Notes under the pieces: generated by a model
The model's database searches: none
Told to the model about the DNA's origin: nothing
What the model saw: the letters and a program-made list of their open reading frames with translations, nothing else
Made by a program: the position numbers and the translations under genes
From: Bacillales bacterium UBA5348
Lineage (GTDB): Bacteria; Bacillota_I; Bacilli_A; RF39; UBA660
NCBI GenBank assembly: GCA_002411005.1
Contig: DHQC01000013.1
Coordinates: 133,093 to 197,092, forward strand
DNA: 64,000 nucleotides
Direction: 5' to 3'
Shown: positions 3,437 through 53,663 of the stretch, in pieces
Layout of the letters: every line of letters begins with the position of its first letter
How positions within the stretch are numbered: the stretch's first letter is position 1

Positions 3437-3913
3437 ATGACAAATGAAAAACAAAGAGAAATATACTTAACCCAGGAAGGTTTAGATAAAGTAAAAGAGG
3501 AATTGAAAACTCTAAAAATGGAAGAACGTCCAGAAATTATTAGAGCTATTAAAGAAGCTCGTGCTTTAGGAGATTTATCTGAAAATGCTGATTATCATGC
3601 GGCTCGTGAAGAACAAGCTGTATTAGAAGCACGTATTCAGGATCTTGAAGCTATGGTTGAAGGAGCAATAATAATAAGTAATGCCAAATCTAATGAAGTT
3701 AGAATTGGAGCTACTGTTACTATCCAATATACTGAGGATAATGAGACTGAAGAATATAAAATTGTTGGAAGAAAAGAAGCAAATCCATTTGAAAACAGAA
3801 TATCAAACGAATCGCCAATTGCGATAGCTGTAACAGGTCATAAAAAAGGTGATGTTGTAACAGTTGAAAGTCCAAATGGAAAGTATGATATCAAAATCAT
3901 TGATATAAAATAA
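3437..3913 (+). CDS. greA: Transcription elongation factor GreA
   Basis: N-terminus MTNEKQREIYLTQEGLDKVKEEL and a C-terminal FKBP-like domain. GAGGTGA RBS precedes ATG 3437. Confidence 0.9.
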   Translation: MTNEKQREIYLTQEGLDKVKEELKTLKMEERPEIIRAIKEARALGDLSENADYHAAREEQAVLEARIQDLEAMVEGAIIISNAKSNEVRIGATVTIQYTEDNETEEYKIVGRKEANPFENRISNESPIAIAVTGHKKGDVVTVESPNGKYDIKIIDIK

Positions 3914-3965
3914 GATTACTAATTGTAATCTTTTTCATGTTACAATAGTATAAGGAGGATTATAT

Positions 3966-5210
3966 ATGAGCAAACAAAAATTTATAGTAAAGATTGAAAA
4001 AGAAGACTGGGAAGGTGCTTTAGATAAATCGTTTCAAAAGAATGTTAAAAAAACAAAGATAGATGGTTTTAGAGAAGGTAAGGCACCACGTGATATTTAT
4101 GAAAAGAAATTAGGAAAAGAGTCATTATATATGGACGCAATTGATTTTGTATTACCTGATGCTTATTCTAAACTTTTAAAGGATAATAGCTTAGAACCAG
4201 TTGCACAACCTAATGTCGATATTAAGAATATCGATGACTCTGGCATTGAAGTTGAATTTGTAGTTATTACAAAGCCGGAAATTAAAATTAAAAAATACAA
4301 AAAATTAGGTTTAAAGAAACAACCAGTAGAAGTTACAAAAGAAGAAGTAGAAAAAGAAATCGATGAATTACAAAAACAATATGCAGAGATTGTTTTAAAA
4401 GAAGAAGCAATTGAAATAGGTGATACAGCTGTTATTGATTTTCAAGGATTTAAGGATGATGTAGCATTTGAAGGTGGAAAAGGCGAAAATTACCCACTTG
4501 AAATAGGCAGCAAAACATTTATACCAGGCTTTGAAGAACAATTAGTTGGTTTAAAAGATGGAGAAGAAAAAGATATAAAGGTTACTTTTCCTGAAGATTA
4601 TCCAAGTGAGGATCTTAAAGGTTGCGAAGTGACTTTTAAAGTTAAGATTAACGAAGTCAAAACAAAAGTTATTCCAGAATTAAATGAAGACTTTTATAAG
4701 GACTTAGGAATAGAAGGTGTATCTTCTAAGGAAACATTATATAGTCATATGGAAAAAGAAATTAGCTTACGCAAAGAAGAAGCTAATGAACAAGCTTTTG
4801 CTGAGCAAGTTCTAGAAGAAATAGCTAAAGATGTTGATGTGGAAATTCCTCATGAAATGATAGATGATGAAATTCACTTTATGTTGGAACAATTAGAACA
4901 AAATTTAAATATGCAAGGAATTCAATTAGAACAATTCATGCAAATGGCTAATACAACTCATGAAAAATTACATGAAGAATATGAAAAGCCTGCTCATAAG
5001 AGAGTTTTACAATCATTAATTTTAAATGAGGTAGCTAAATTAGAAAATATTGAAATAAGTGATGCTGAGGTAGATGCAGAAATACCTTTATTAGCACTTA
5101 AATATCAATTAAATGAAGAAGAAATAAAACAATTAAGTGGTCTTAAAGACGCTATTAAAGGCGATTTAAAGATGAGAAAAATATTTACTGTATTAAAAGA
5201 AAATAATTAA
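3966..5210 (+). CDS. tig: Trigger factor
   Basis: 414 aa. N-terminal ribosome-binding signature GFREGKAP and a central FKBP PPIase domain (FIPGFEEQLVGLKDGEEKDIKVTFPEDY). Confidence 0.85.
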   Translation: MSKQKFIVKIEKEDWEGALDKSFQKNVKKTKIDGFREGKAPRDIYEKKLGKESLYMDAIDFVLPDAYSKLLKDNSLEPVAQPNVDIKNIDDSGIEVEFVVITKPEIKIKKYKKLGLKKQPVEVTKEEVEKEIDELQKQYAEIVLKEEAIEIGDTAVIDFQGFKDDVAFEGGKGENYPLEIGSKTFIPGFEEQLVGLKDGEEKDIKVTFPEDYPSEDLKGCEVTFKVKINEVKTKVIPELNEDFYKDLGIEGVSSKETLYSHMEKEISLRKEEANEQAFAEQVLEEIAKDVDVEIPHEMIDDEIHFMLEQLEQNLNMQGIQLEQFMQMANTTHEKLHEEYEKPAHKRVLQSLILNEVAKLENIEISDAEVDAEIPLLALKYQLNEEEIKQLSGLKDAIKGDLKMRKIFTVLKENN

Positions 5211-5370: not shown

Positions 5371-7701
5371 ATGGTTAAAACTAGTTTACCAGTTATCCTG
5401 CTTAGGGGCGTGGTGTTATTACCATATTCAGAAATTAGATTAGAAGTAAATAATGATATTGATAGAGAGATATTTAAATTAGCTGAAGAAAATCACAATA
5501 ATAACATTTTGATTGTGCCACTTACTAATCCTCTTGATGAATCTTTAAATATTAGTGAACTACCTAAAATAGCAGTAATTGGCAAAATTAATTTAAAAAT
5601 GGAATTACAGAATGGTCTTACAAGAGCAGTAATTACAGGTTTGAATAGAGTGTCAGTTTATAATTATTCTATTTATGATGATAATGCAAAAATTTTAAAA
5701 GCAGATATTGGCAGTACAACTCAATTTGCAATTACACCAAAGGATGAAGCGGCATTAACAAGTAAGTTGATAAAAGAATTTGAAATATTTATCGAGAACC
5801 ATCATGAAATTAGTAATGGTATTTTATCAGAAGTTATGGAAATAAAAAATATAGCTAAAGCAACTGATGTAATATCAGCATATGTACCTACAACATATGA
5901 GCGTAAAATAGAATATTTAAAAACGGTTAATCCTTATACACGTTTGTTGATGTTGCTTGAGGATATTAAAAAAGAACGACAAATTAATGAGTTAGAACAG
6001 AGAATAGATACTGAAGTTAAAAAACAATTAGACGATTCACAAAAAGAGTATATTTTACGTGAGAAATTACGTGTTATAAAAGCTGAACTTGGAGAAGTTA
6101 ATGTTAAAGATGATGATATCGAGGATATAAGGAAGAAAATTTCAGCTGGTGAATATCCTGTTAAGATTAAAGAACGACTTCATCAAGAATTAAAGAAATA
6201 TGAACTTTTATCATCTAATTCCCCTGAAATAAGTCTTGTTAGAAATTATATTGATTGGTTGCTTAATTTACCTTGGAAGAAATACACAGTTGATAATGTT
6301 AATATGGTTAAAACGAGAGTGGTTTTAGATGCCTCTCATTACGGACTTGATAAAATAAAAGACCGTATTATTGAGTTCTTAGCTGTGAGACAAATGAAGA
6401 AAGATTTGAAAGCACCAGTTATTTGTTTAGTTGGTCCTCCAGGTGTTGGTAAAACATCTCTTGCAAAAAGTATTGCAGAAAGTATGGGGAGAAAATTTGT
6501 TAAAATATCAGTTGGCGGCGTTAGTGATGAAGCTGAGATTAGAGGTCATAGACGTGCTTACGTAGGCGCTAACCCAGGACGTATCATATCTGGTATGAAA
6601 AAAGCAGGCAGCTCAAATCCAATCTTTTTAATTGACGAAATAGATAAGATGGGTAAAGATTATAAAGGAGATCCAGCTAGTGCTCTTCTAGAAGTGCTGG
6701 ATCAAGAACAAAATCACATGTTTTATGATAACTATATTGAAGAAGAATATGATTTATCACAGGTATTATTTGTATTGACAGCTAATTATTCAAATAATAT
6801 ACCAGAACCTTTGAGAGATCGCTTAGAAGTTATAGAACTAACAGGTTATACAGAATATGAAAAATTAGATATTGTTAAAAAACATATTTTGCCAAAGGAA
6901 TTAGACAATCACGGATTAACAGGCAAAGATATTGAAATAAGTGATAAGACAATTATGCATGTAATTAGCTATTATACAAAAGAAGCAGGCGTAAGAGAAA
7001 TAGAACGTTTAATTGCGACACTGTGTCGTAAAGTTGTAACTAATATAGTTAATGGAAATAAAAAGAAAAAAACATATAAAATTAATGAAGATAATTTAGA
7101 AACATATTTAGGCAAAAAGAAATATTTTTATACGGAAAATGATGAGGCAGACAAAGTTGGAGTCGCAAACGGATTAGCTTATACGCAATTTGGCGGAGAT
7201 ATTCTACCAATAGAGGTTACTTACTATAAGGGAAAAGGTAATTTGGTTTTAACTGGTTCATTAGGTGATGTTATGAAAGAATCGGCTAATATAGCATTAA
7301 GTTATTTGAAGAGTCATTACGACGAATTTGGTATCGACTACAAATTATTAGTAGAAAATGATATTCATATCCATTTACCAGAAGGTGCGATTCCTAAAGA
7401 TGGACCTAGTGCAGGGATTACATTAGTAACTGCTTTGATAAGTGTTTTTACAAATAAAACAATTGATCATAATATTGGTATGACAGGCGAAATAACATTA
7501 CATGGTCAAGTGTTACCTATAGGTGGTTTAAAAGAGAAAGCTATGGGTGCACATCGTAGTGGTTTAAAGAAAATAATTATTCCCAAAAAGAACGAACGTG
7601 ACTTGGACGAGGTACCAAAAGAAATAAAAAAAGATTTAGAGTTTATTTTTGTTAATGAATATAAAGATGTCTATAAATTGCTTAATTTTGACCAAAAATA
7701 G
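5371..7701 (+). CDS. lon: ATP-dependent Lon protease (LonA)
   Basis: Lon N-domain, AAA+ Walker A GPPGVGKTS, and S16 protease motif PKDGPSAGIT. GGGAGGTG RBS precedes ATG 5371. Confidence 0.95.
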   Translation: MVKTSLPVILLRGVVLLPYSEIRLEVNNDIDREIFKLAEENHNNNILIVPLTNPLDESLNISELPKIAVIGKINLKMELQNGLTRAVITGLNRVSVYNYSIYDDNAKILKADIGSTTQFAITPKDEAALTSKLIKEFEIFIENHHEISNGILSEVMEIKNIAKATDVISAYVPTTYERKIEYLKTVNPYTRLLMLLEDIKKERQINELEQRIDTEVKKQLDDSQKEYILREKLRVIKAELGEVNVKDDDIEDIRKKISAGEYPVKIKERLHQELKKYELLSSNSPEISLVRNYIDWLLNLPWKKYTVDNVNMVKTRVVLDASHYGLDKIKDRIIEFLAVRQMKKDLKAPVICLVGPPGVGKTSLAKSIAESMGRKFVKISVGGVSDEAEIRGHRRAYVGANPGRIISGMKKAGSSNPIFLIDEIDKMGKDYKGDPASALLEVLDQEQNHMFYDNYIEEEYDLSQVLFVLTANYSNNIPEPLRDRLEVIELTGYTEYEKLDIVKKHILPKELDNHGLTGKDIEISDKTIMHVISYYTKEAGVREIERLIATLCRKVVTNIVNGNKKKKTYKINEDNLETYLGKKKYFYTENDEADKVGVANGLAYTQFGGDILPIEVTYYKGKGNLVLTGSLGDVMKESANIALSYLKSHYDEFGIDYKLLVENDIHIHLPEGAIPKDGPSAGITLVTALISVFTNKTIDHNIGMTGEITLHGQVLPIGGLKEKAMGAHRSGLKKIIIPKKNERDLDEVPKEIKKDLEFIFVNEYKDVYKLLNFDQK

Positions 7702-40255: not shown

Positions 40256-40549
40256 ATGTCTGACCCAACATCTAAAATGCCCGAAAGGTATATTACTAGA
40301 GAACAGGCAATTACTGATATTATTGAATCAGTTGCTTTAGAAGAAGCTGCTTTGTCTCATATCTTAAAAGCAGAAGGAGATAAAATCCATAAGTTTTTAG
40401 AAAAAGCTAGATGCCCAGGTGATTTACTACTTATTAATAAATCGGTTCAATCTATGATTAGTGTAATCACAGTTCTACAAGCTGTTCTACATGCTAAAAT
40501 TGAACTTTTTGCTTGTGATAATAATGATTATGAGTATGAGGAATATTAA
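40256..40549 (+). CDS. Small helical protein paralogous to the C-terminal domain of the divergent 39114 gene
   Basis: 97 aa. DIIESVALEEAALSHILKAEGDKI...LLLINKSVQSMISVITVLQAVLHAKIE aligns with IIESIASIESSLAEILNTETQKI...ILKINASINKTISKITVLEQILLDKLE in the neighbour. AAAGGAGG RBS. Confidence 0.5.
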   Translation: MSDPTSKMPERYITREQAITDIIESVALEEAALSHILKAEGDKIHKFLEKARCPGDLLLINKSVQSMISVITVLQAVLHAKIELFACDNNDYEYEEY

Positions 40550-45107: not shown

Positions 45108-45149
45108 AACAATAAACTCTAACTAATTGTAGTTAGAGTTTATTGTTTC
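45108..45149. terminator. Bidirectional terminator (18-bp perfect stem)
   Basis: Hairpin AACAATAAACTCTAACTAattgTAGTTAGAGTTTATTGTT. Confidence 0.65.
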
Positions 45150-45610
45150 TTTAAGTCTAATAAATGTTGAATTTGCCAATTTCTTTCATCTTCCATTAAT
45201 TGAGTAACATTATCTTTATCTTTATCTTTATCTTTATTTAAATGATATATAGCTGAAACTACATACATGGCTGATCCTTCTGAATGGGTAGGGACATGGC
45301 AAGTCACTAAAGCATGGCTACAGGCCCTACAAATTTGACATGCTGCTTTATCGATTGGTTCTAATTCTCTAGCAGCGGCTAGAGCAGGATATGTGAACTT
45401 TCTAGCATCCCACATTTTCATCTCACCGTTAATCCATTTTTTTAACATATTTATTGCAGTACGAGGTCTAACCTCATTGGAATATTTATCCTCAAGTAAT
45501 GGCATATATTTTTCAACGCAATCAATTGCCCAAATAGCTAAAATCTTTTGGTCTGTTGTTTTTATTATTTCGACTAATCTAGGATCGTGCCTTAATTTTC
45601 TCATATCCAT
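45140..45610 (-). CDS. Hypothetical Cys/His-cluster protein (third gene of the DNPH1-like operon)
   Basis: 156 aa. Putative metal-binding cluster CQICRACSHALVTCHVPTH. Contains a KDKDKDKD hexanucleotide repeat. 4-nt gap to the upstream gene. Confidence 0.45.
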   Translation of the reverse strand: MDMRKLRHDPRLVEIIKTTDQKILAIWAIDCVEKYMPLLEDKYSNEVRPRTAINMLKKWINGEMKMWDARKFTYPALAAARELEPIDKAACQICRACSHALVTCHVPTHSEGSAMYVVSAIYHLNKDKDKDKDNVTQLMEDERNWQIQHLLDLKKQ

Positions 45611-46746: not shown

Positions 46747-47574
46747 TTACCGTGTCTCTTTTTTTATTAATTTAGCATGTAAAACAACTTTATCATCCTC
46801 ATTATAACAAGTAGATAAAGTTAATATATTATCACTAGCATTAACAGAGGTATTGAAATTATAAGAACTTCGATTTAATAATGTACTGAGAAAGGTTTGA
46901 TATTCATTTTCACTTCTAAATTCAGTTTGAATATAATCGCTAGTAGTAGGAATGTGATAAACACTAAATACTTGCCACAATGTATTTTCATATTCGGTTG
47001 ATAATTTTACAACATAATTATTATCATTTTTAAGCCATCCACTTTTTAATATATTCTTTAATGAACCAAACATTGTTGTGTCAATTCTTCCATGTGCGTA
47101 TATAATTGTATTCTTATCTGTTCCATCTAACTTATTTCTATAATCTGAAAATACCCATCCTGCTTCATTATAACTTTTATCAAATGTATGATTTAAATAG
47201 TATTTATTATCTTTAGTTTGAACAAAGGGATAATTTATATTAGTCCCATTAACTTGTATCCATCCCATTGTATGATTATTAGTTTCTTTTAAATCAGTAA
47301 AATTAACATTTATCATATTCATTTTTATGTAATCCCAATAAGGATTAAATTTAGGAATTACTTCCACTTGTTCTATTATCTCGGTATTTTCGGTGTCACT
47401 AATTTCTTTAATAACAATTTCCTCGTGTATTTTCTCAATTTGAATTTCAGTTTCATGTGAATCAAACTTCCACTTTAGAATATTGAATAATGAAATAATA
47501 AAAAAGATAAAGCATACGATAAAAACAATTAAAATAATACTGTTTTTTAATTTATATTTTGTTTTTTTCTTCAA
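46747..47574 (-). CDS. srtB: Class B sortase
   Basis: N-terminal TM anchor, YPFVQTKDNKYYLNH, and catalytic TLSTC. Confidence 0.8.
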   Translation of the reverse strand: MKKKTKYKLKNSIILIVFIVCFIFFIISLFNILKWKFDSHETEIQIEKIHEEIVIKEISDTENTEIIEQVEVIPKFNPYWDYIKMNMINVNFTDLKETNNHTMGWIQVNGTNINYPFVQTKDNKYYLNHTFDKSYNEAGWVFSDYRNKLDGTDKNTIIYAHGRIDTTMFGSLKNILKSGWLKNDNNYVVKLSTEYENTLWQVFSVYHIPTTSDYIQTEFRSENEYQTFLSTLLNRSSYNFNTSVNASDNILTLSTCYNEDDKVVLHAKLIKKETR

Positions 47575-47711
47575 ATCATATCACGTCCATTATCATTATA
47601 CTATTTTTTTGTGAAAAATTAAAAAATATTAACTAAATGATAAAAATGTGCTATACTTGATTAAAGTAAGATAGTAAAAATAAGTTACTTACTTTGAAAG
47701 AGAGGAGAAAA

Positions 47712-49172
47712 ATGAAAGGGATTAAAATGTTTGCATGTGCACTTGTTGGATTTATGGGTTTTGGAATAATGAGTGTTAATGCATTAGAGGTAAGTGAAAC
47801 ATTTGAAAAAGTATTTCCAAATGGAGAACTTGAAACTTATTCAGTTCCATTTAAAAATATAAATGATCAATGGGTTTTTCTTGATTGGTCTTTCGCAAAT
47901 AATCCTGGTAGTAAAGAATTACCTGCCGGATATGGAGCTTCAATCAGTGATTGTGATGAAAATTGGGTTTGTACAGGGACAATTGGAGAAAGCTGCTCGA
48001 GTCCTGAAGAATGTGCAATAGCATTTAACGAATCTCATAGTGTTAAATTAGTTTTTAATGAATACGACAGGGAAATTGACAAAACAGTAAGTCAGTTAGT
48101 TAAAAAAATAGCAGACGGATCAACTTTTGAAAATATTAAATATTATAATTTAACTGATTTAAATTTAGTGAATTATTATGCTTCAATAAATGATACTGAA
48201 GACGCAATGGATTTAGATAAATCTATCAATTATACTACTGAATTGAAAAAGGATTTCAATAATAGTAATCTTACTTATACTTTTAGTGCAAGAATGGGAG
48301 ATAATTATCCACTTTATTCTTCATTAGGTGGGATATTTGTTGTATATCATAATGGTATTGCATATGGATATGTAGATCCAATTGGAATTCAAAATGCAAA
48401 TGTTATATATGTTCCAACTGATACTGTAACTACTACTGATGCATATATTGCTGCCGCAAAAGAAAGAATAAAAGGATATTTGGGTTATGATGTAGAAATT
48501 ATAGCAGGTGGTAAAAGAGTCACTTTAAAGGTATATCCTGATGATCCTGAATCTGAAAGTTACGATTTTACAAAACTTGGCGATGAAACCTTGATGGGAG
48601 ATTATTACTACAATGTAAAACTTAATGGTAATATATATCAATTTGTTATTATTAGAGATTCTAGTAAAATGCAATCTCCAGAGTATAAATCAGTAGATTT
48701 AAAATCAAATATTGCTGTATCTTCTAATAATGGAACAATTCCGCTTGATGCAAATATCAATACAACAATAATTACTAAAACAGATGATTACAAAATAAAA
48801 GTAAATTCAGATAATGTTTATGTTGTTGATATACAATTGAAGTCAGCATTGAAAACAGATTATATTGCTAAACTAGATAATGGTAAATATTTAGTTAGTA
48901 TTCCAGTACCGGAAAATCTAAACGGTAAAGAAATAATTGCTTATTATATTACAAGTACAGGTGAAAAAGAAGAGCATGTTGTAACAGTAAAAGATGGTTT
49001 TGCATCTTTTGAAACTGATCACTTTAGTACATATATATTAGCAGAAAAAGCAACTTTAACTGAAACTAATCCTCAAACATTTGACGGGGTCATAAATTAT
49101 TTTATTATTGGTATAGTAAGTTTAATTGGACTTCTAGGAACAGGATTATATTTAAGAAAAAGAAATAATTAA
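47712..49172 (+). CDS. Cell-wall-anchored surface protein with NPQT sorting signal (SrtB substrate candidate)
   Basis: Signal peptide. C-terminus ...TNPQTFDGV, a hydrophobic stretch, then LRKRNN. AGAGGAG RBS before ATG 47712. Confidence 0.7.
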   Translation: MKGIKMFACALVGFMGFGIMSVNALEVSETFEKVFPNGELETYSVPFKNINDQWVFLDWSFANNPGSKELPAGYGASISDCDENWVCTGTIGESCSSPEECAIAFNESHSVKLVFNEYDREIDKTVSQLVKKIADGSTFENIKYYNLTDLNLVNYYASINDTEDAMDLDKSINYTTELKKDFNNSNLTYTFSARMGDNYPLYSSLGGIFVVYHNGIAYGYVDPIGIQNANVIYVPTDTVTTTDAYIAAAKERIKGYLGYDVEIIAGGKRVTLKVYPDDPESESYDFTKLGDETLMGDYYYNVKLNGNIYQFVIIRDSSKMQSPEYKSVDLKSNIAVSSNNGTIPLDANINTTIITKTDDYKIKVNSDNVYVVDIQLKSALKTDYIAKLDNGKYLVSIPVPENLNGKEIIAYYITSTGEKEEHVVTVKDGFASFETDHFSTYILAEKATLTETNPQTFDGVINYFIIGIVSLIGLLGTGLYLRKRNN

Positions 49173-49525
49173 AAAAGTTATATTATGAGAATTCACAATT
49201 TGTGAGTTCTTTTTTGTTGACACCTTATTTACTATAGAATAAGTGAATATGCATTTGCTCAGATTGATATAATTGAAAAGTATGCAGTCGAAATTGTTTT
49301 AGGATTCAATGTTGTAAGACCTTATCTTGTTGGAGCTTCAGATGTTGGTGCTTTTGCTTTTGTAACTCTTGGGGACTTCTCCTTACATTGTAACCTCAAT
49401 AAAACCCCCGCTTTAACTTTAGCTGATGCCTATGCCTTATATGAAAATAATCTTGATAGAATTCGCCTATCGTAAAGATTGATACTTAATCTACTTTATT
49501 ATTTGTCTACTATATGGGGTACTTA

Positions 49526-49848
49526 TTCAAAAGGAACTAGGTTTTAAAATAAACACCATTCAAACTGATAACGGTAGTGAGTTTGTAAATAATTAAGAAG
49601 AAACAAAAGAATTAAAGAGATTATGTATTAAACATAAAAGAAAAAGACCATATTCACCTTGGCAAAATGGAAAGGTTGAAAGAAGTCATAGAATGGATAC
49701 AGAAAGATTTTATAATAAGCATGAATTTGCATCTGAAGAAGATTTAATGAAGAAAGTAAAGAGATATGAATCTAGATATAATAACATTTCAAGAAAAGTA
49801 TTAGGATTCAAATCCCTTAATGAAATAGTAGAACAATATTTAATTTAA
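49526..49848 (+). mobile_element. Transposase remnant (rve/DDE integrase C-terminal part, IS481/IS3-like) with an internal stop; no intact IS
   Basis: The frame reads ...LGFKINTIQTDNGSEFVNN*EETKELKRLCIKHKRKRPYSPWQNGKVERSHRMDTERFYNKHEF...RKVLGFKSLNEI, i.e. the TDNGSEF ... PYSPxxNGKVER block of retroviral-type integrase cores. No N-terminal half and no inverted repeats were found. Confidence 0.6.
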
Positions 49849-50037
49849 TATATCAGAGCTATTTATTTTTATAAAAAGTGTGACATATGATTGATTTCTC
49901 TAGAAAAAAATTATAAAAAAGAAATTTTTATGAAGAATTATGTCAAACTTTATGTTAAAATAAGTATGAGGATAGATAAAATTAAGTAGTACATTTAAGC
50001 AGTAAGTAGTAAAAATCTTATCGAAAGGGGAAATACT

Positions 50038-50436
50038 ATGAAAAAGTTTAAATTTTTTGCGATGATTTTAGGCCTATCATTCGGTTTAACCGCAATGGGT
50101 GTAAATGCCTGGACTTATAAACCCTTTGGGATCTTATTTGAAAACTGGGGAACCCAAACTATTAATACCGCATATGCAGACAAAGAAACAGATATAGCAC
50201 AAAAATGGGAAACTCTTGAAGTTTCAAATGGTGGAAACCCTGAAGTTGTGTTACAAGGCAAAACGCTTGGCTCTGTAAGTGATAATGGTTGGAGAGTTTA
50301 TTTATGGAATGGACAAGCATACGAATGGTCTACATACCTTTCAAAACTCGATTCAGAAGATTATAGATTGCAATTTAAAAAGAATGGTTGGACAATTGGA
50401 ATGACTAATGTCACCGGTTTTTGGTGGAAATATTAA
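50038..50436 (+). CDS. Secreted Trp-rich small protein (bacteriocin-like candidate)
   Basis: Sec signal MKKFKFFAMILGLSFGLTAMGVNA; the 108-aa mature part has 11 Trp and ends ...GFWWKY. Immediately upstream of a LanFEG-like ABC transporter. Confidence 0.45.
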   Translation: MKKFKFFAMILGLSFGLTAMGVNAWTYKPFGILFENWGTQTINTAYADKETDIAQKWETLEVSNGGNPEVVLQGKTLGSVSDNGWRVYLWNGQAYEWSTYLSKLDSEDYRLQFKKNGWTIGMTNVTGFWWKY

Positions 50437-50521
50437 TCCAAGTAACAACTAATAGAATATAAGTAGTATGAATAATAATATAAAAATTTTATCTACTCTC
50501 TATTTTTTATTAGGAGGTAAT

Positions 50522-51304
50522 ATGAAAAATAGCAAAAAAAATATTTGTCTTTTTGTAATTTCGGTAGTGGCTTCAATCATAATGGTATTTTTATCCATTA
50601 ATTCACAATATCCCGATGGTTTAGGTATGGACAGAGCACCATTTGATTATGCTTGGTTTGATGTGTATGTTTATACAAGCTCGACATTTTTAGTTGTAGC
50701 AACATTGATTCTAATATTATCATGTAAAAAAATTCATGATTTATATCATTCTGGAATGATAAAAAATATGATTCAACGAGAAACAATTAGTAATATTAAG
50801 AAAAACCTTTTGGCAAATACGTGGTTAAGTGGTCTTTTCCTTTATCCTGTATTTCTGATACTTACATATATTATTTGTTTTATTGTTTTTCCTACTAGAG
50901 GTGCAGGAATAAACATCGGTCCAGATGGACCAATGTATAATTCACTTTTAATTCTTCTTAAATCTTGTGTAATAACAATAATATATTCAATCATTGTTTT
51001 CAACGTCACATTAATAGTGTCTAAAAAAATGAAGAGTTTTGCAGTTACAACAATTTTATCTTTTATAATAATTTTGATTTATTCAGCGATTTCTCAACTA
51101 ATTTTTGTTAACATTTTTAAAACATTTTTATCGGAACAATTCGCCAAAGGATTTGATTTAATTAATGGTTTAATATTTGGGTTTGGAAGCACTATATCAA
51201 TTTTAATACATGGATTCATTTTAGTAATTATAACCACCTTAATTTTAAATAAGATTTATAAGGATACTAATGAAGTTGTTTTGAATTATGAAAATCAAAA
51301 CTAA
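50522..51304 (+). CDS. ABC-2-type permease-like membrane protein (1 of 3)
   Basis: About 6 TM helices. AGGAGGT RBS before ATG 50522. Confidence 0.5.
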   Translation: MKNSKKNICLFVISVVASIIMVFLSINSQYPDGLGMDRAPFDYAWFDVYVYTSSTFLVVATLILILSCKKIHDLYHSGMIKNMIQRETISNIKKNLLANTWLSGLFLYPVFLILTYIICFIVFPTRGAGINIGPDGPMYNSLLILLKSCVITIIYSIIVFNVTLIVSKKMKSFAVTTILSFIIILIYSAISQLIFVNIFKTFLSEQFAKGFDLINGLIFGFGSTISILIHGFILVIITTLILNKIYKDTNEVVLNYENQN

Positions 51305-51998
51305 TGAAAAAATGCTATATGATGAAATAACGAGTAATAAAATACTAACAATAACAGCAATATTTATTACTGCCGTTATATTCACAATAGCTTATACAAA
51401 TGGATTAAAAGGTTCTAATTACTTTGAATTTATAAATGAAATATTTGTTAGTGTACCTTATTGTAGTTTGATTACAATAATTTCTGGGTTACTTATAAAC
51501 TTAATCATATTTAGAAGTTTTCTAGGGAATAATTTGTTAGAACAAAGGTTTAAATCAAAAAAAGATTTATTTAATTATATATTAAAATTCTATTTAAAAA
51601 TATTGTTTATAGTTCTAGGATTTATAATCTTTGCTGTTATGATATTTTCTAATTTATTTTCCCATTTCAATTTGGTTTTTATTACTGATGGAAATATAAA
51701 CGAAAATATTATATTCATATTTATAAATTTATATTTGACTTTGATAAATATTACAATATGGTTTTTAATAAGTTATGTTATATTGAAATTAATTAATGAT
51801 AAATTAGGCATTATAATTGTTGTTTTTATAGCACTATATCAATATGTAAGTCCGACAATATTTAATATTAATATAATGTTTCCATATGTGAATACTTATA
51901 ATAATTTATGGATATTGTTGCTGACTCCAATCTTTATATTTATATTATATAAATTATCAATGATTATATATACTAAACAGAATTGGAAGATTAGATAA
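51288..51998 (+). CDS. ABC-2-type permease-like membrane protein (2 of 3)
   Basis: 236 aa, about 6 TM helices. Overlaps the neighbouring gene. Confidence 0.5.
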   Translation: MKIKTNEKMLYDEITSNKILTITAIFITAVIFTIAYTNGLKGSNYFEFINEIFVSVPYCSLITIISGLLINLIIFRSFLGNNLLEQRFKSKKDLFNYILKFYLKILFIVLGFIIFAVMIFSNLFSHFNLVFITDGNINENIIFIFINLYLTLINITIWFLISYVILKLINDKLGIIIVVFIALYQYVSPTIFNINIMFPYVNTYNNLWILLLTPIFIFILYKLSMIIYTKQNWKIR

Positions 51999-52760
51999 AT
52001 GAAATCAATGATATATAGAGATTTGTTATTGTTTGTTAAGAAAAATTATAAGATTTTAATTTTTATAATTCTATTGTTAGTATTGAAAACAATATTTAAT
52101 TATAATGATTTTATCAATGCAACAAATTCTGTTGATAATTCAGATAATTTATCGCAAAACAATGTAATCGATTTAACTCCATTTGTTTATACAGAAAACC
52201 TGTTTTTTGAAAGATCTTTGGGACTAACGTATGATATAGATGGGATTATTGAAATCATATATATGTGTTTAATTATATCGTTATACATATATGTAGCAGT
52301 TTCAGTTTATTTTTCAGATATAGCTTCAGCACCAGAACAATTGTTTTTGAGAATGAACAAAAAAAAATACGTAATGCAAAAACTTATATCTATTACAGCA
52401 ATAAGTATTTTAATAGATGTAATACTATATTTATCTCTCTTTATAACACTTTCTGCATTAAATGTAAGCTATTTTAATTTTGAATTGCTGTTTGTTAATA
52501 TATTTTATAAAATAATTCTGCAGTTTATAGTAATTGCTTTGTTTGGTTATATAAGCATATACTCATATTTTGTTGTTCTAGGATTACTATTGTCAATTTT
52601 GACATTTAAAATTAAGTATCTATATTTTTTGTTTCCAAGTGGAGTAAAGTTTGATATCTATATAGTCATAGTTTTTATAATAATTTCTATGTTTACATAT
52701 TGGATATGCCACAAGAAAATAATAAGTCTTTTCAGAAAGGAGAAAATGTATGGAATATAA
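51999..52760 (+). CDS. ABC-2-type permease-like membrane protein (3 of 3)
   Basis: 253 aa, about 6 TM helices. Abuts the previous gene. Confidence 0.5.
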   Translation: MKSMIYRDLLLFVKKNYKILIFIILLLVLKTIFNYNDFINATNSVDNSDNLSQNNVIDLTPFVYTENLFFERSLGLTYDIDGIIEIIYMCLIISLYIYVAVSVYFSDIASAPEQLFLRMNKKKYVMQKLISITAISILIDVILYLSLFITLSALNVSYFNFELLFVNIFYKIILQFIVIALFGYISIYSYFVVLGLLLSILTFKIKYLYFLFPSGVKFDIYIVIVFIIISMFTYWICHKKIISLFRKEKMYGI

Positions 52761-53388
52761 AATTGAAGTAAAAGATTTGAACTTAACTATAAATTCACAT
52801 GAAATCCTAAAAAATATTAATTTAAACATTGAATCTGGAAAAATATATGGTTTTATCGGACGAAATGGTAGTGGGAAAAGCATGCTTCTTAAATGTATAT
52901 GTGGATTACTTAAACCGAATACAGGGAGTGTTATTGTTAACAATGAAGACATTTATAAAAAAGACGTGTTTCCAAGTAGTATGAGAGCTTTTATTGACAA
53001 ACCAACATTTATAGGATCTTTAACAGGATATGAGAATTTAGAATTATTAGCTGATATACAAAATATTATAGATGATGAAAAAATTAAAGATACTCTTATA
53101 AAGTGTGATTTAGAAGATCAAATAAATAAAAAATATGGCAAATATTCACTTGGAATGAAACAAAAACTAGCGATTGCTAGTGTCTTGATGGAAAATCCAG
53201 ATATTATGATATTTGACGAACCATTTAATGGAATTGATAATAAAAGTGTTGAAATGATTAGAAAGATAATTCTAGAAGAAAAACAACAGGGAAAAACAAT
53301 TTTGATTGCAACACATATAAAAGAAGATATAGACTTATTATGTGACGTTATATATGAATTGGATTTAGGTCAAATAATCGGCAAGTAA
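52750..53388 (+). CDS. ABC transporter ATP-binding protein (LanF-like)
   Basis: Walker A GRNGSGKS, signature LGMKQKL, and Walker B MIFDEP. Confidence 0.8.
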   Translation: MEYKIEVKDLNLTINSHEILKNINLNIESGKIYGFIGRNGSGKSMLLKCICGLLKPNTGSVIVNNEDIYKKDVFPSSMRAFIDKPTFIGSLTGYENLELLADIQNIIDDEKIKDTLIKCDLEDQINKKYGKYSLGMKQKLAIASVLMENPDIMIFDEPFNGIDNKSVEMIRKIILEEKQQGKTILIATHIKEDIDLLCDVIYELDLGQIIGK

Positions 53389-53589
53389 CAATAATATAGA
53401 TATTTAATTTTAAATATGATCGTGTTTATTTGCAAAATATTTAACTTATTAGAAAATTAGTAATTACTTAAGAAAAATCATTGTCTTAATTCTTTCAGAC
53501 TGTTGGTAAAAACCAATGGTCTTTTTTTAAAAAAAACGTAAAAAATATAAAAAAATTTAACAAAATATTGCTAAATTTTTAATTTTTCT

Positions 53590-53663
53590 TGGCAGGGGCA
53601 GTAGGAGTTGAACCCACATTAACGGTTTTGGAGACCGTCATTCTACCATTGAAATATGCCCCT
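53590..53663 (-). tRNA. tRNA-Trp (anticodon CCA)
   Basis: The reverse complement gives AGGGGCATATTTCAATGGTAGAATGACGGTCTCCAAAACCGTTAATGTGGGTTCAACTCCTACTGCCCCTGCCA. Near-identical architecture to B. subtilis tRNA-Trp. Confidence 0.85.

Follow-up and report, generated by a model that had tools for sequence, protein, structure and literature searches.

The five co-directional open reading frames (ORFs) at positions 50038-53388 (+) of a 64,000-nucleotide stretch from Bacillales bacterium UBA5348 (contig DHQC01000013.1, positions 133,093 to 197,092; this whole stretch is hereafter the window) form one operon with its own terminator, in the gene order S-M1-M2-M3-A, where S is a small secreted protein, M1 to M3 are membrane proteins and A is an ATP-binding cassette (ABC) ATPase. 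We read this locus, with a probability of roughly 85%, as an ABC-2 exporter operon with a dedicated secreted partner that belongs to a wider operon family; the locus is a divergent member of a widespread, uncharted and functionally unstudied family of Firmicutes operons. As to what the partner does, we lean tentatively, at somewhat less than even odds, toward S being a secreted effector against which the pump protects its producer, a toxin/immunity interpretation that is plausible but unproven. An earlier note on this DNA had described the same five genes, with products of 132, 260, 236 and 253 amino acids (aa) and a short ATPase, and this layout was recovered in full. The features of the operon are as follows.

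49904-50037 (+): upstream leader, non-coding and conserved; putative promoter and ribosome-binding site of the S gene
50038-50436 (+): S pre-protein, 132 aa; signal peptide 50038-50109, mature 108-aa domain 50110-50433
50522-51304 (+): M1 membrane protein, 260 aa; six hydrophobic segments; an alternative ATG at 50468 would give 278 aa
51288-51998 (+): M2 membrane protein, 236 aa; about six transmembrane (TM) segments; 17-nt overlap with M1
51999-52760 (+): M3 membrane protein, 253 aa; about six TM segments; begins directly past the M2 stop
52750-53388 (+): A, ABC ATPase, 212 aa, nucleotide-binding domain (NBD) only; 11-nt overlap with M3
53497-53530 (+): intrinsic-terminator-like hairpin and T-run (11-bp stem, 4-nt loop, TTTTTTT), which closes the operon

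The 260-aa start of M1 is preferred because AGGAGG lies 6 nt 5' of the ATG at 50522, and GGGG precedes the S start codon at 50038. A sigma-70-like site at 49955-49982 matches 9 of 12 consensus positions, which is weak and not above chance, and an Rfam scan detected no RNA element within or near the operon. The terminator at 53497-53530 falls within the nucleotide block common to the window and one of the related loci (L010), and a separate terminator at 49187-49211 ends the gene preceding the cassette.

Conservation of the operon and its products

All five genes are under purifying selection, with dN/dS values of 0.05-0.38 in pairwise comparisons with three orthologous cassettes (about 0.2 for S). 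The exact S protein is present on fermentation-metagenome contigs in the same context as in the window, and among 5.8 billion proteins its close homologues make up 11 clusters only (67-94% identical), always with the same four genes downstream and in entirely different chromosomal surroundings. At the nucleotide level, the block 49904-53526 shares 83-94% identity with four other loci (L004, L006, L010 and L011), the similarity beginning at 49904-49925 and ending at 53412-53526, and the flanks are unrelated. At ~3.6 kb, the operon is self-contained and horizontally mobile. Its permease genes have a GC content of 0.205-0.24 compared with ~0.29 in the rest of the window; a search of the 3.6-kb block for repeats at its ends, and of the window for an att-like copy of the 3' end of a neighboring tRNA-Trp gene, found neither. 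One could suppose that the ORFs or their arrangement arose by chance in AT-rich DNA or through rearrangement mediated by insertion sequences (IS) and make up no functional unit, considering that very low GC readily yields hydrophobic ORFs and that an IS remnant lies 190 bp upstream. The conservation data refute this supposition, to which we give next to no credence, since all five genes have dN/dS values well under 1 and the gene order is kept across very divergent cassettes and in at least 600 metagenome stretches carrying the ATPase motifs.

The IS remnant, already recognized in the earlier note, is a degraded transposase gene of the rve (DDE) type at ~49510-49848 (+), ~190 bp 5' of S; its reading frame is broken by a stop codon, and its translation gives IQTDNGSEFVNN up to the stop and RPYSPWQNGKVERSHR past it (the latter part also read as PYSPWQNGKVERSHR). 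The related cassettes L019 and L017 are flanked by intact rve or other transposase genes. A 51-aa ORF 5' of the L006 cassette was considered as a second copy of the remnant and dropped, the sequences being unrelated. On the other side of the operon, a tRNA-Trp(CCA) gene at 53590-53663 (-) points its 3' end toward the cassette terminator at a distance of 70 bp; this placement is a typical geometry of island insertion, and the tRNA gene happens to have a gene for a Trp-rich protein as neighbor.

The analysis of the first gene showed S to be a predicted Sec-exported, Trp-rich β-protein of the signal-peptidase-I type. Hydrophobic residues 6-22 are followed by GVNA↓WTYKP, with the predicted cleavage after VNA and no lipobox Cys, which bears out the Sec signal and the Trp-rich secreted product proposed earlier. 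The mature protein (108 aa, ~12 kDa, no Cys, net charge of about -2) contains nine Trp residues rather than the eleven first counted, and its C-terminus, TGFWWKY, is invariant. S produced no Pfam or NCBIfam match (E≤1), and two S profiles compared with the Protein Data Bank (PDB) returned nothing or non-significant Ig-like matches (a fimbrial protein, E 0.13). An exhaustive comparison of the S profile with 1.84 billion representatives recovered, apart from the family itself, just a single relative of 107 aa and four proteins with FG-GAP repeats (E 3e-13 to 2e-6). Residues 38-95 of S (50149-50322) align with a single FG-GAP-like repeat of large β-propeller proteins (hhalign probability 72%, E 3.6e-5); the FG-GAP calcium loop DxNGDGxxD is degenerate in S (SNGGNPE), and S itself did not match the FG-GAP models PF01839/PF13517. 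A shorter internal echo in S (NGWRV / NGWTI) corresponds to a direct DNA repeat at 50284 and 50383. We also considered whether the C-terminal strand ("TGxWLL/WW") might be avidin/streptavidin-like and dropped the idea, since neither S profile reached an avidin chain.

For the membrane proteins, the comparisons showed features that identify M1-M3 as three probably different six-TM subunits of the ABC-2/type V exporter class. The hydropathy of each fits six TM segments, with a 45-aa loop between TM1 and TM2 in M3, and none produced a Pfam or NCBIfam match at E≤1; M3 has only six clusters of close homologues. The M1 profile reaches permeases of more distant two-permease operons (E 1e-5 to 1e-15), and the permease at L090:5125-5985, which scores E 2e-8 to this profile, passes Pfam ABC2_membrane_4 (PF12730). 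When compared with the PDB, the M3 profile touched PmtD only (three entries at a non-significant E of ~5, in register over ~180 residues), the M2 profile touched nothing, and the single match of the M1 profile, a SemiSWEET segment, was judged spurious. These links to an ABC2_membrane_4 permease and to PmtD agree with the permease-like character given in the earlier note, where the three had been called overlapping six-TM paralogues. The six segments and the M1/M2 overlap were likewise found, whereas M2 and M3 abut. The paralogy did not emerge as stated: BLASTP found no similarity among M1, M2 and M3, and profile-profile comparisons built on seven divergent cassettes gave weak values (M2-M3, E 7e-4 and probability 26%; M1-M2, E 0.033; M1-M3, E 0.11). 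All of these alignments match up the same basic segment past TM2, and a common origin of the three is possible.

The ATPase matches PF00005 (E 4e-30) and carries a Walker A (GRNGSGKS), a signature (YSLGMKQK) and a Walker B/D-loop (FDEPFNGID). Its best NCBIfam model is TIGR03740 (lantibiotic protection ATPase), at 163.4 bits against a cut-off of 309.75, followed by DrrA (TIGR01188, 144 bits), GldA, CcmA, PmtC (109) and PmtA (94); TIGR03608 gave 103 bits against a cut-off of 254.85. The nearest solved relatives are the NBDs of ABCA3, ABCA1, ABCA4 and ABCA7 (E 1e-29 to 5e-34). Based on the NCBIfam scores and these ABCA-type relatives, A belongs to the ABC-2/type V class, yet it is no curated LanF, and the earlier label "LanF-like" holds for the identity of the best model and fails at its cut-off. 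The Q-loop position of A is occupied by Asp83 (AFIDKP), and by Glu in six of six aligned relatives (LIEKP, LIENP, LIERP); in the E-loop of LanF proteins, the Q-loop Gln is reportedly replaced by Glu (Okuda et al. 2010). A PADLOC run on the operon returned generic ATPase matches only.

Relatives of the cassette

Relatives of A are abundant (more than 7800 at E<1e-20), and past the orthologues there is a dense clade of 208-218-aa ATPases with 57-62% identity to A. Eleven of these were looked up, which yielded ten distinct cassette types including that of the window. In all eleven loci the ATPase gene is preceded by genes for three Pfam-less membrane proteins (216-316 aa); a set of three is what this clade conserves, and the third permease, which had been taken as unusual, is the rule here. 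Seven of the ten types open with a signal-peptide protein of 132-165 aa (the window type, L012, L013, L016, L019, L104 and L106). These first proteins are homologous to S, as seen between the window and L012 (E 1e-8 to 1e-10) and between L012 and L019 (5e-8), and in the recovery of those of L013, L016, L104 and L106 by profile. Across the divergent cassettes they are only ~20-30% identical, yet the pump genes co-occur with them, and they share the C-terminal signature Y-x-L-x-(F)K...G......(V/I)TG-x-W(W). Ten related S and M proteins fell into no Pfam or NCBIfam family.

S is absent or lost in three of the ten types (L017, L018/L105 and L015). In L015, from the human gut, a signal peptide and a TED (thioester) adhesin domain are joined in frame with the second, C-terminal half of M1 (3509-4570), and this fusion stands in place of S and the N-terminal half of M1 of its sister locus L016. 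The S gene of L011 (6659-7054; metagenome-assembled genome DUQO01000047) has an in-frame TAG at codon 77, where its relatives have Glu or Leu, the result of either pseudogenization or an assembly error. On a Clostridium tetani plasmid (NZ_AP026807.1; L102, 953-4026), three hypothetical membrane proteins and an ATPase with 46% identity are encoded immediately 5' of the collagenase gene colT, and no S-like gene is annotated in this locus. Directly after the S-less cassette of L018 there is a gene with an Ntox44 toxin domain (6807-7397) and a run of small ORFs. The earlier note had held that an ABC unit conserved without the secreted gene in relatives would refute its toxin reading. Such units do occur in some relatives (L017, L018/L105 and the C. 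tetani plasmid, besides the nonsense codon in L011), and they leave the toxin/immunity question undecided because orphan immunity modules are expected under that model too.

At greater distance, a metagenome scan with two ATPase motifs recovered at least 600 stretches, from which 80 loci with 40-59% ATPase identity were surveyed. These loci encode one or more exported proteins, then two or three polytopic proteins, then the ATPase. DUF6034 lipoproteins (470-540 aa; E 1e-31 to 2e-92), with a C-terminal ending ...VPVWxF...INAIDGSxI, are encoded 5' of the permeases, sometimes in one to three tandem copies; these operons (L031, L049, L062 and others) have two permeases, often with a response regulator and a histidine kinase ahead. 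The DUF6034-permease-ATPase arrangement is a large, unstudied operon type of gut Firmicutes. Other exported proteins of the distant operons belong to DUF4352, DUF5027 or DUF5028, and further loci encode small secreted proteins of ~133-153 aa, one of which (L035) passes Pfam DUF2712, which we take to be the YybN family; S of the window has no DUF2712 match in Pfam. Between the S family and these distant small proteins, hmmsearch gave E ~0.01 in a 59-sequence set, which is suggestive only. In four loci (L048, L089, L092 and L103, the last on a Niallia taxi megaplasmid), genes for a lipoprotein and a small S-like secreted protein stand together with those for two permeases and the ATPase. Out of 116 related membrane proteins, four matched ABC2_membrane_4, four ABC2_membrane_2 and three, weakly, DUF2705. 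A literature search on DUF6034, DUF5027, DUF5028, DUF2705 and DUF2712 found nothing.

Known systems and the role of the secreted partner

Among described systems, the closest in architecture is the yybN-yybM-yybL-yybK-yybJ operon of B. subtilis, and by analogy the window operon may be of this kind. Both begin with a small gene, continue with three for membrane proteins and end with one for an ABC ATPase (PMC2978689 Table 1; PMC11466899 Table 5). The yybN-yybM-yybL-yybK(-yybJ) genes are described as a horizontally acquired, A+T-rich unit under direct repression by Rok, which represses the antimicrobial operons sdp, sunA, sbo-alb and yyd as well (PMC2978689), and YybJ2KL was modeled as a type V exporter (PMC11466899). 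The two differ in origin, the window cassette coming from an uncultured low-GC, "Mollicutes"-labeled Firmicute of fermenters and digesters, and in the DUF2712 match, which S lacks.

The immunity transporters of the LanFEG(H) type (NisFEG, NukFEGH, EpiFEG-H) share with the window a short NBD with TIGR03740 as best NCBIfam model and, probably, ABC-2-type six-TM permeases, the expected action being the expulsion of a membrane-inserted peptide; at the Q-loop position both have an acidic residue, though it is Asp in the window copy and Glu in LanF. Third membrane subunits of the LanH type occur in lantibiotic immunity systems. On the other hand, A falls far under the TIGR03740 cut-off (163 vs 310 bits), M1-M3 match no LanE or LanG model (the ABC2_membrane_4 link is indirect, via L090), the ATPase gene comes last in the window and first in LanFEG, and the product encoded alongside is a Sec-dependent protein of 12 kDa. 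Genes for a lantibiotic precursor or for its modification (lanA, lanB/C/M) were not found within 10 kb on either side or in the other cassette contexts. The lactococcin 972 locus likewise combines, in one operon, an unmodified β-rich protein with a Sec signal and an aromatic C-terminus with membrane protein(s) and an ABC ATPase; it differs in that S matches neither PF09683/TIGR01653 nor the solved Lcn972 chain, in having one 7-TM protein of ~650 aa where the window has three of 236-260 aa, and in the TIGR03608 cut-off, which A misses. PmtABCD, the phenol-soluble-modulin exporter of S. aureus, is also of the ABC-2/type V class and couples export with self-protection, and PmtD, similar in length to M3, is the only solved chain that the M3 profile touches (in register, at the non-significant E of ~5). 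It differs in having two ATPases and two permeases, and it acts on leaderless peptides of the cytoplasm instead of proteins exported by Sec.

Taken as an effector with its self-protection pump, the operon could work as follows. Two copies of A would pair with two of the M subunits to give a type V exporter, and the remaining M protein would be a subunit for specificity or immunity, in the manner of LanH/NukH. After Sec export, S would enter the outer leaflet of target membranes with its aromatic C-terminal hairpin (TGFWWKY). In the membrane of the producer itself, the pump would extract S much as LanFEG and PmtCD extract their peptides, and this expulsion would provide self-immunity and aid release.

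We favor an effector role of S because its structural gene stands first in the operon, as do those of its homologues in seven of the ten cassette types, and because the five genes are one operon under purifying selection, conserved as a unit in four unrelated contexts and more AT-rich than its surroundings. The pump components point in the same direction, since the nearest relatives of A are ABCA NBDs and the ATPases of the lantibiotic-protection, DrrA and Pmt types, since Asp/Glu stands in place of the Q-loop Gln in a way that recalls the LanF E-loop, and since M1 is linked to ABC2_membrane_4 and the only PDB matches of M3 are to PmtD. From the relatives, the reading draws on the co-occurrence of an S-like protein and a lipoprotein (L048, L089, L092 and L103), a layout that resembles a structural gene followed by a LanI-like lipoprotein, LanEG and LanF, and on the S-less pump modules, which are like the orphan immunity loci of known bacteriocins. 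It draws further on conflict genes nearby (Imm5_like in the window, Ntox44 beside L018) and on the yybN operon, with its same layout, AT-richness, horizontal acquisition, Rok repression alongside antimicrobial operons and modeled type V exporter.

Several points weigh against this interpretation. To our knowledge, no antimicrobial activity has been described for any family member. In Pfam, NCBIfam and PDB profile searches S has no similarity to any known bacteriocin family, including lactococcin 972, to which the earlier note had pointed, and the mature protein is slightly anionic, unlike most membrane-active bacteriocins. The AlphaFold2 models of S (12-sequence alignment, pLDDT 37) and M3 (seven sequences, pLDDT 45) are both too poor for fold comparison. 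The S profile aligns weakly with the DUF2712-positive L035 protein (hhalign E 0.015, probability 3%), and the likeness to the yybN operon is one of architecture as described in the literature; that operon is itself still "of unknown function" (PMC11841835). Finally, membrane-anchored lipoproteins (DUF6034, DUF4352, DUF5027/5028) occupy the position of S in related operons, which suggests an extracellular partner, not a released toxin.

This last observation favors a strong alternative, to us somewhat less likely than the effector reading, in which S is an extracellular accessory or ligand-capturing subunit, comparable to LanI/SpaI lipoproteins or to periplasmic binders of the PliI/CarG type, and the pump gives resistance against an exogenous membrane- or wall-active compound. 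Besides the lipoproteins encoded before the permeases of the more distant ATPase relatives, it is consistent with the anionic character of S, with the position of some of these operons (L062 and others) behind a response regulator and a histidine kinase, as in Bce-, Cpr- and LanRK-controlled modules, and with the resemblance of the S core to an FG-GAP-like repeat, the FG-GAP proteins reached by the S profile also touching the Pfam PliI and CarG-like models. However, S has a signal-peptidase-I site and neither a lipobox nor another anchor, it matches no PliI or CarG model and no PDB chain itself, and the window cassette has no accompanying sensor kinase. Moreover, the lipoprotein loci often hold a small S-like protein too (L048, L089, L092 and L103), which argues that the two are not simple substitutes.

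The properties of the pump taken by themselves would also fit the export or flipping of an unrelated substrate (a lipid, glycolipid or small peptide), with S as a co-regulated surface or signaling protein, for example in envelope remodeling during sporulation or stress. Teichoic acids, lipids and polysaccharides are among the substrates of type V ABC exporters (PMC11466899, Table 5), the best solved relatives of the ATPase are lipid-transporting ABCA proteins, and the S-less L018/L105 cassettes adjoin spoVIF and der. We nevertheless find this improbable: S and the pump are held together in one 3.6-kb mobile block and co-occur across cassettes in which S is only ~20-30% identical, and no substrate-biosynthesis genes travel with the block. 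Returning to S as an effector, a broader generalization appears doubtful to us at present, namely that the S proteins constitute a widespread new class of Trp-rich effectors, unmodified, dependent on Sec and ~12 kDa in size, each with one FG-GAP-like blade and an aromatic C-terminal hairpin and with a cognate three-subunit type V pump for self-immunity, of which yybN would be the tractable member.

Genomic neighborhood and significance

Several other genes of the window lie 5' of the cassette. A gene for an Imm5_like protein (polymorphic-toxin immunity) is located at ~45140-45610 (-), 4.5 kb away, and a 97-aa gene at ~40256-40549 (219-512 of L001), with a precomputed match to PF26595 (A_ENA), lies ~10 kb away. 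A class B sortase gene at 46747-47574 (-) scored 170 bits with TIGR03064, above the cut-off. Divergent from it, at 47694-49172 (+), is a gene for a Pfam-less surface protein of 492 aa that ends in TNPQTFDG, a hydrophobic stretch and RKRNN, a C-terminus that looks like an NPQTx-type SrtB sorting signal.

Current bacteriocin miners miss this operon family, as no Pfam or NCBIfam model exists for four of the five proteins. If S is antimicrobial, the locus would define an unrecognized family of bacteriocin-plus-immunity operons, common in gut and fermenter Firmicutes (at least 600 metagenome stretches), and would provide the yybN operon with a function in B. subtilis, a species with easy genetics. 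Should S be an accessory subunit instead, the family would amount to type V ABC resistance pumps of a new architecture, in which the three membrane subunits differ from one another. In both cases, the value of the locus is not that of a surprise in itself but that of a pointer to an uncharted operon family with a tractable counterpart in B. subtilis.

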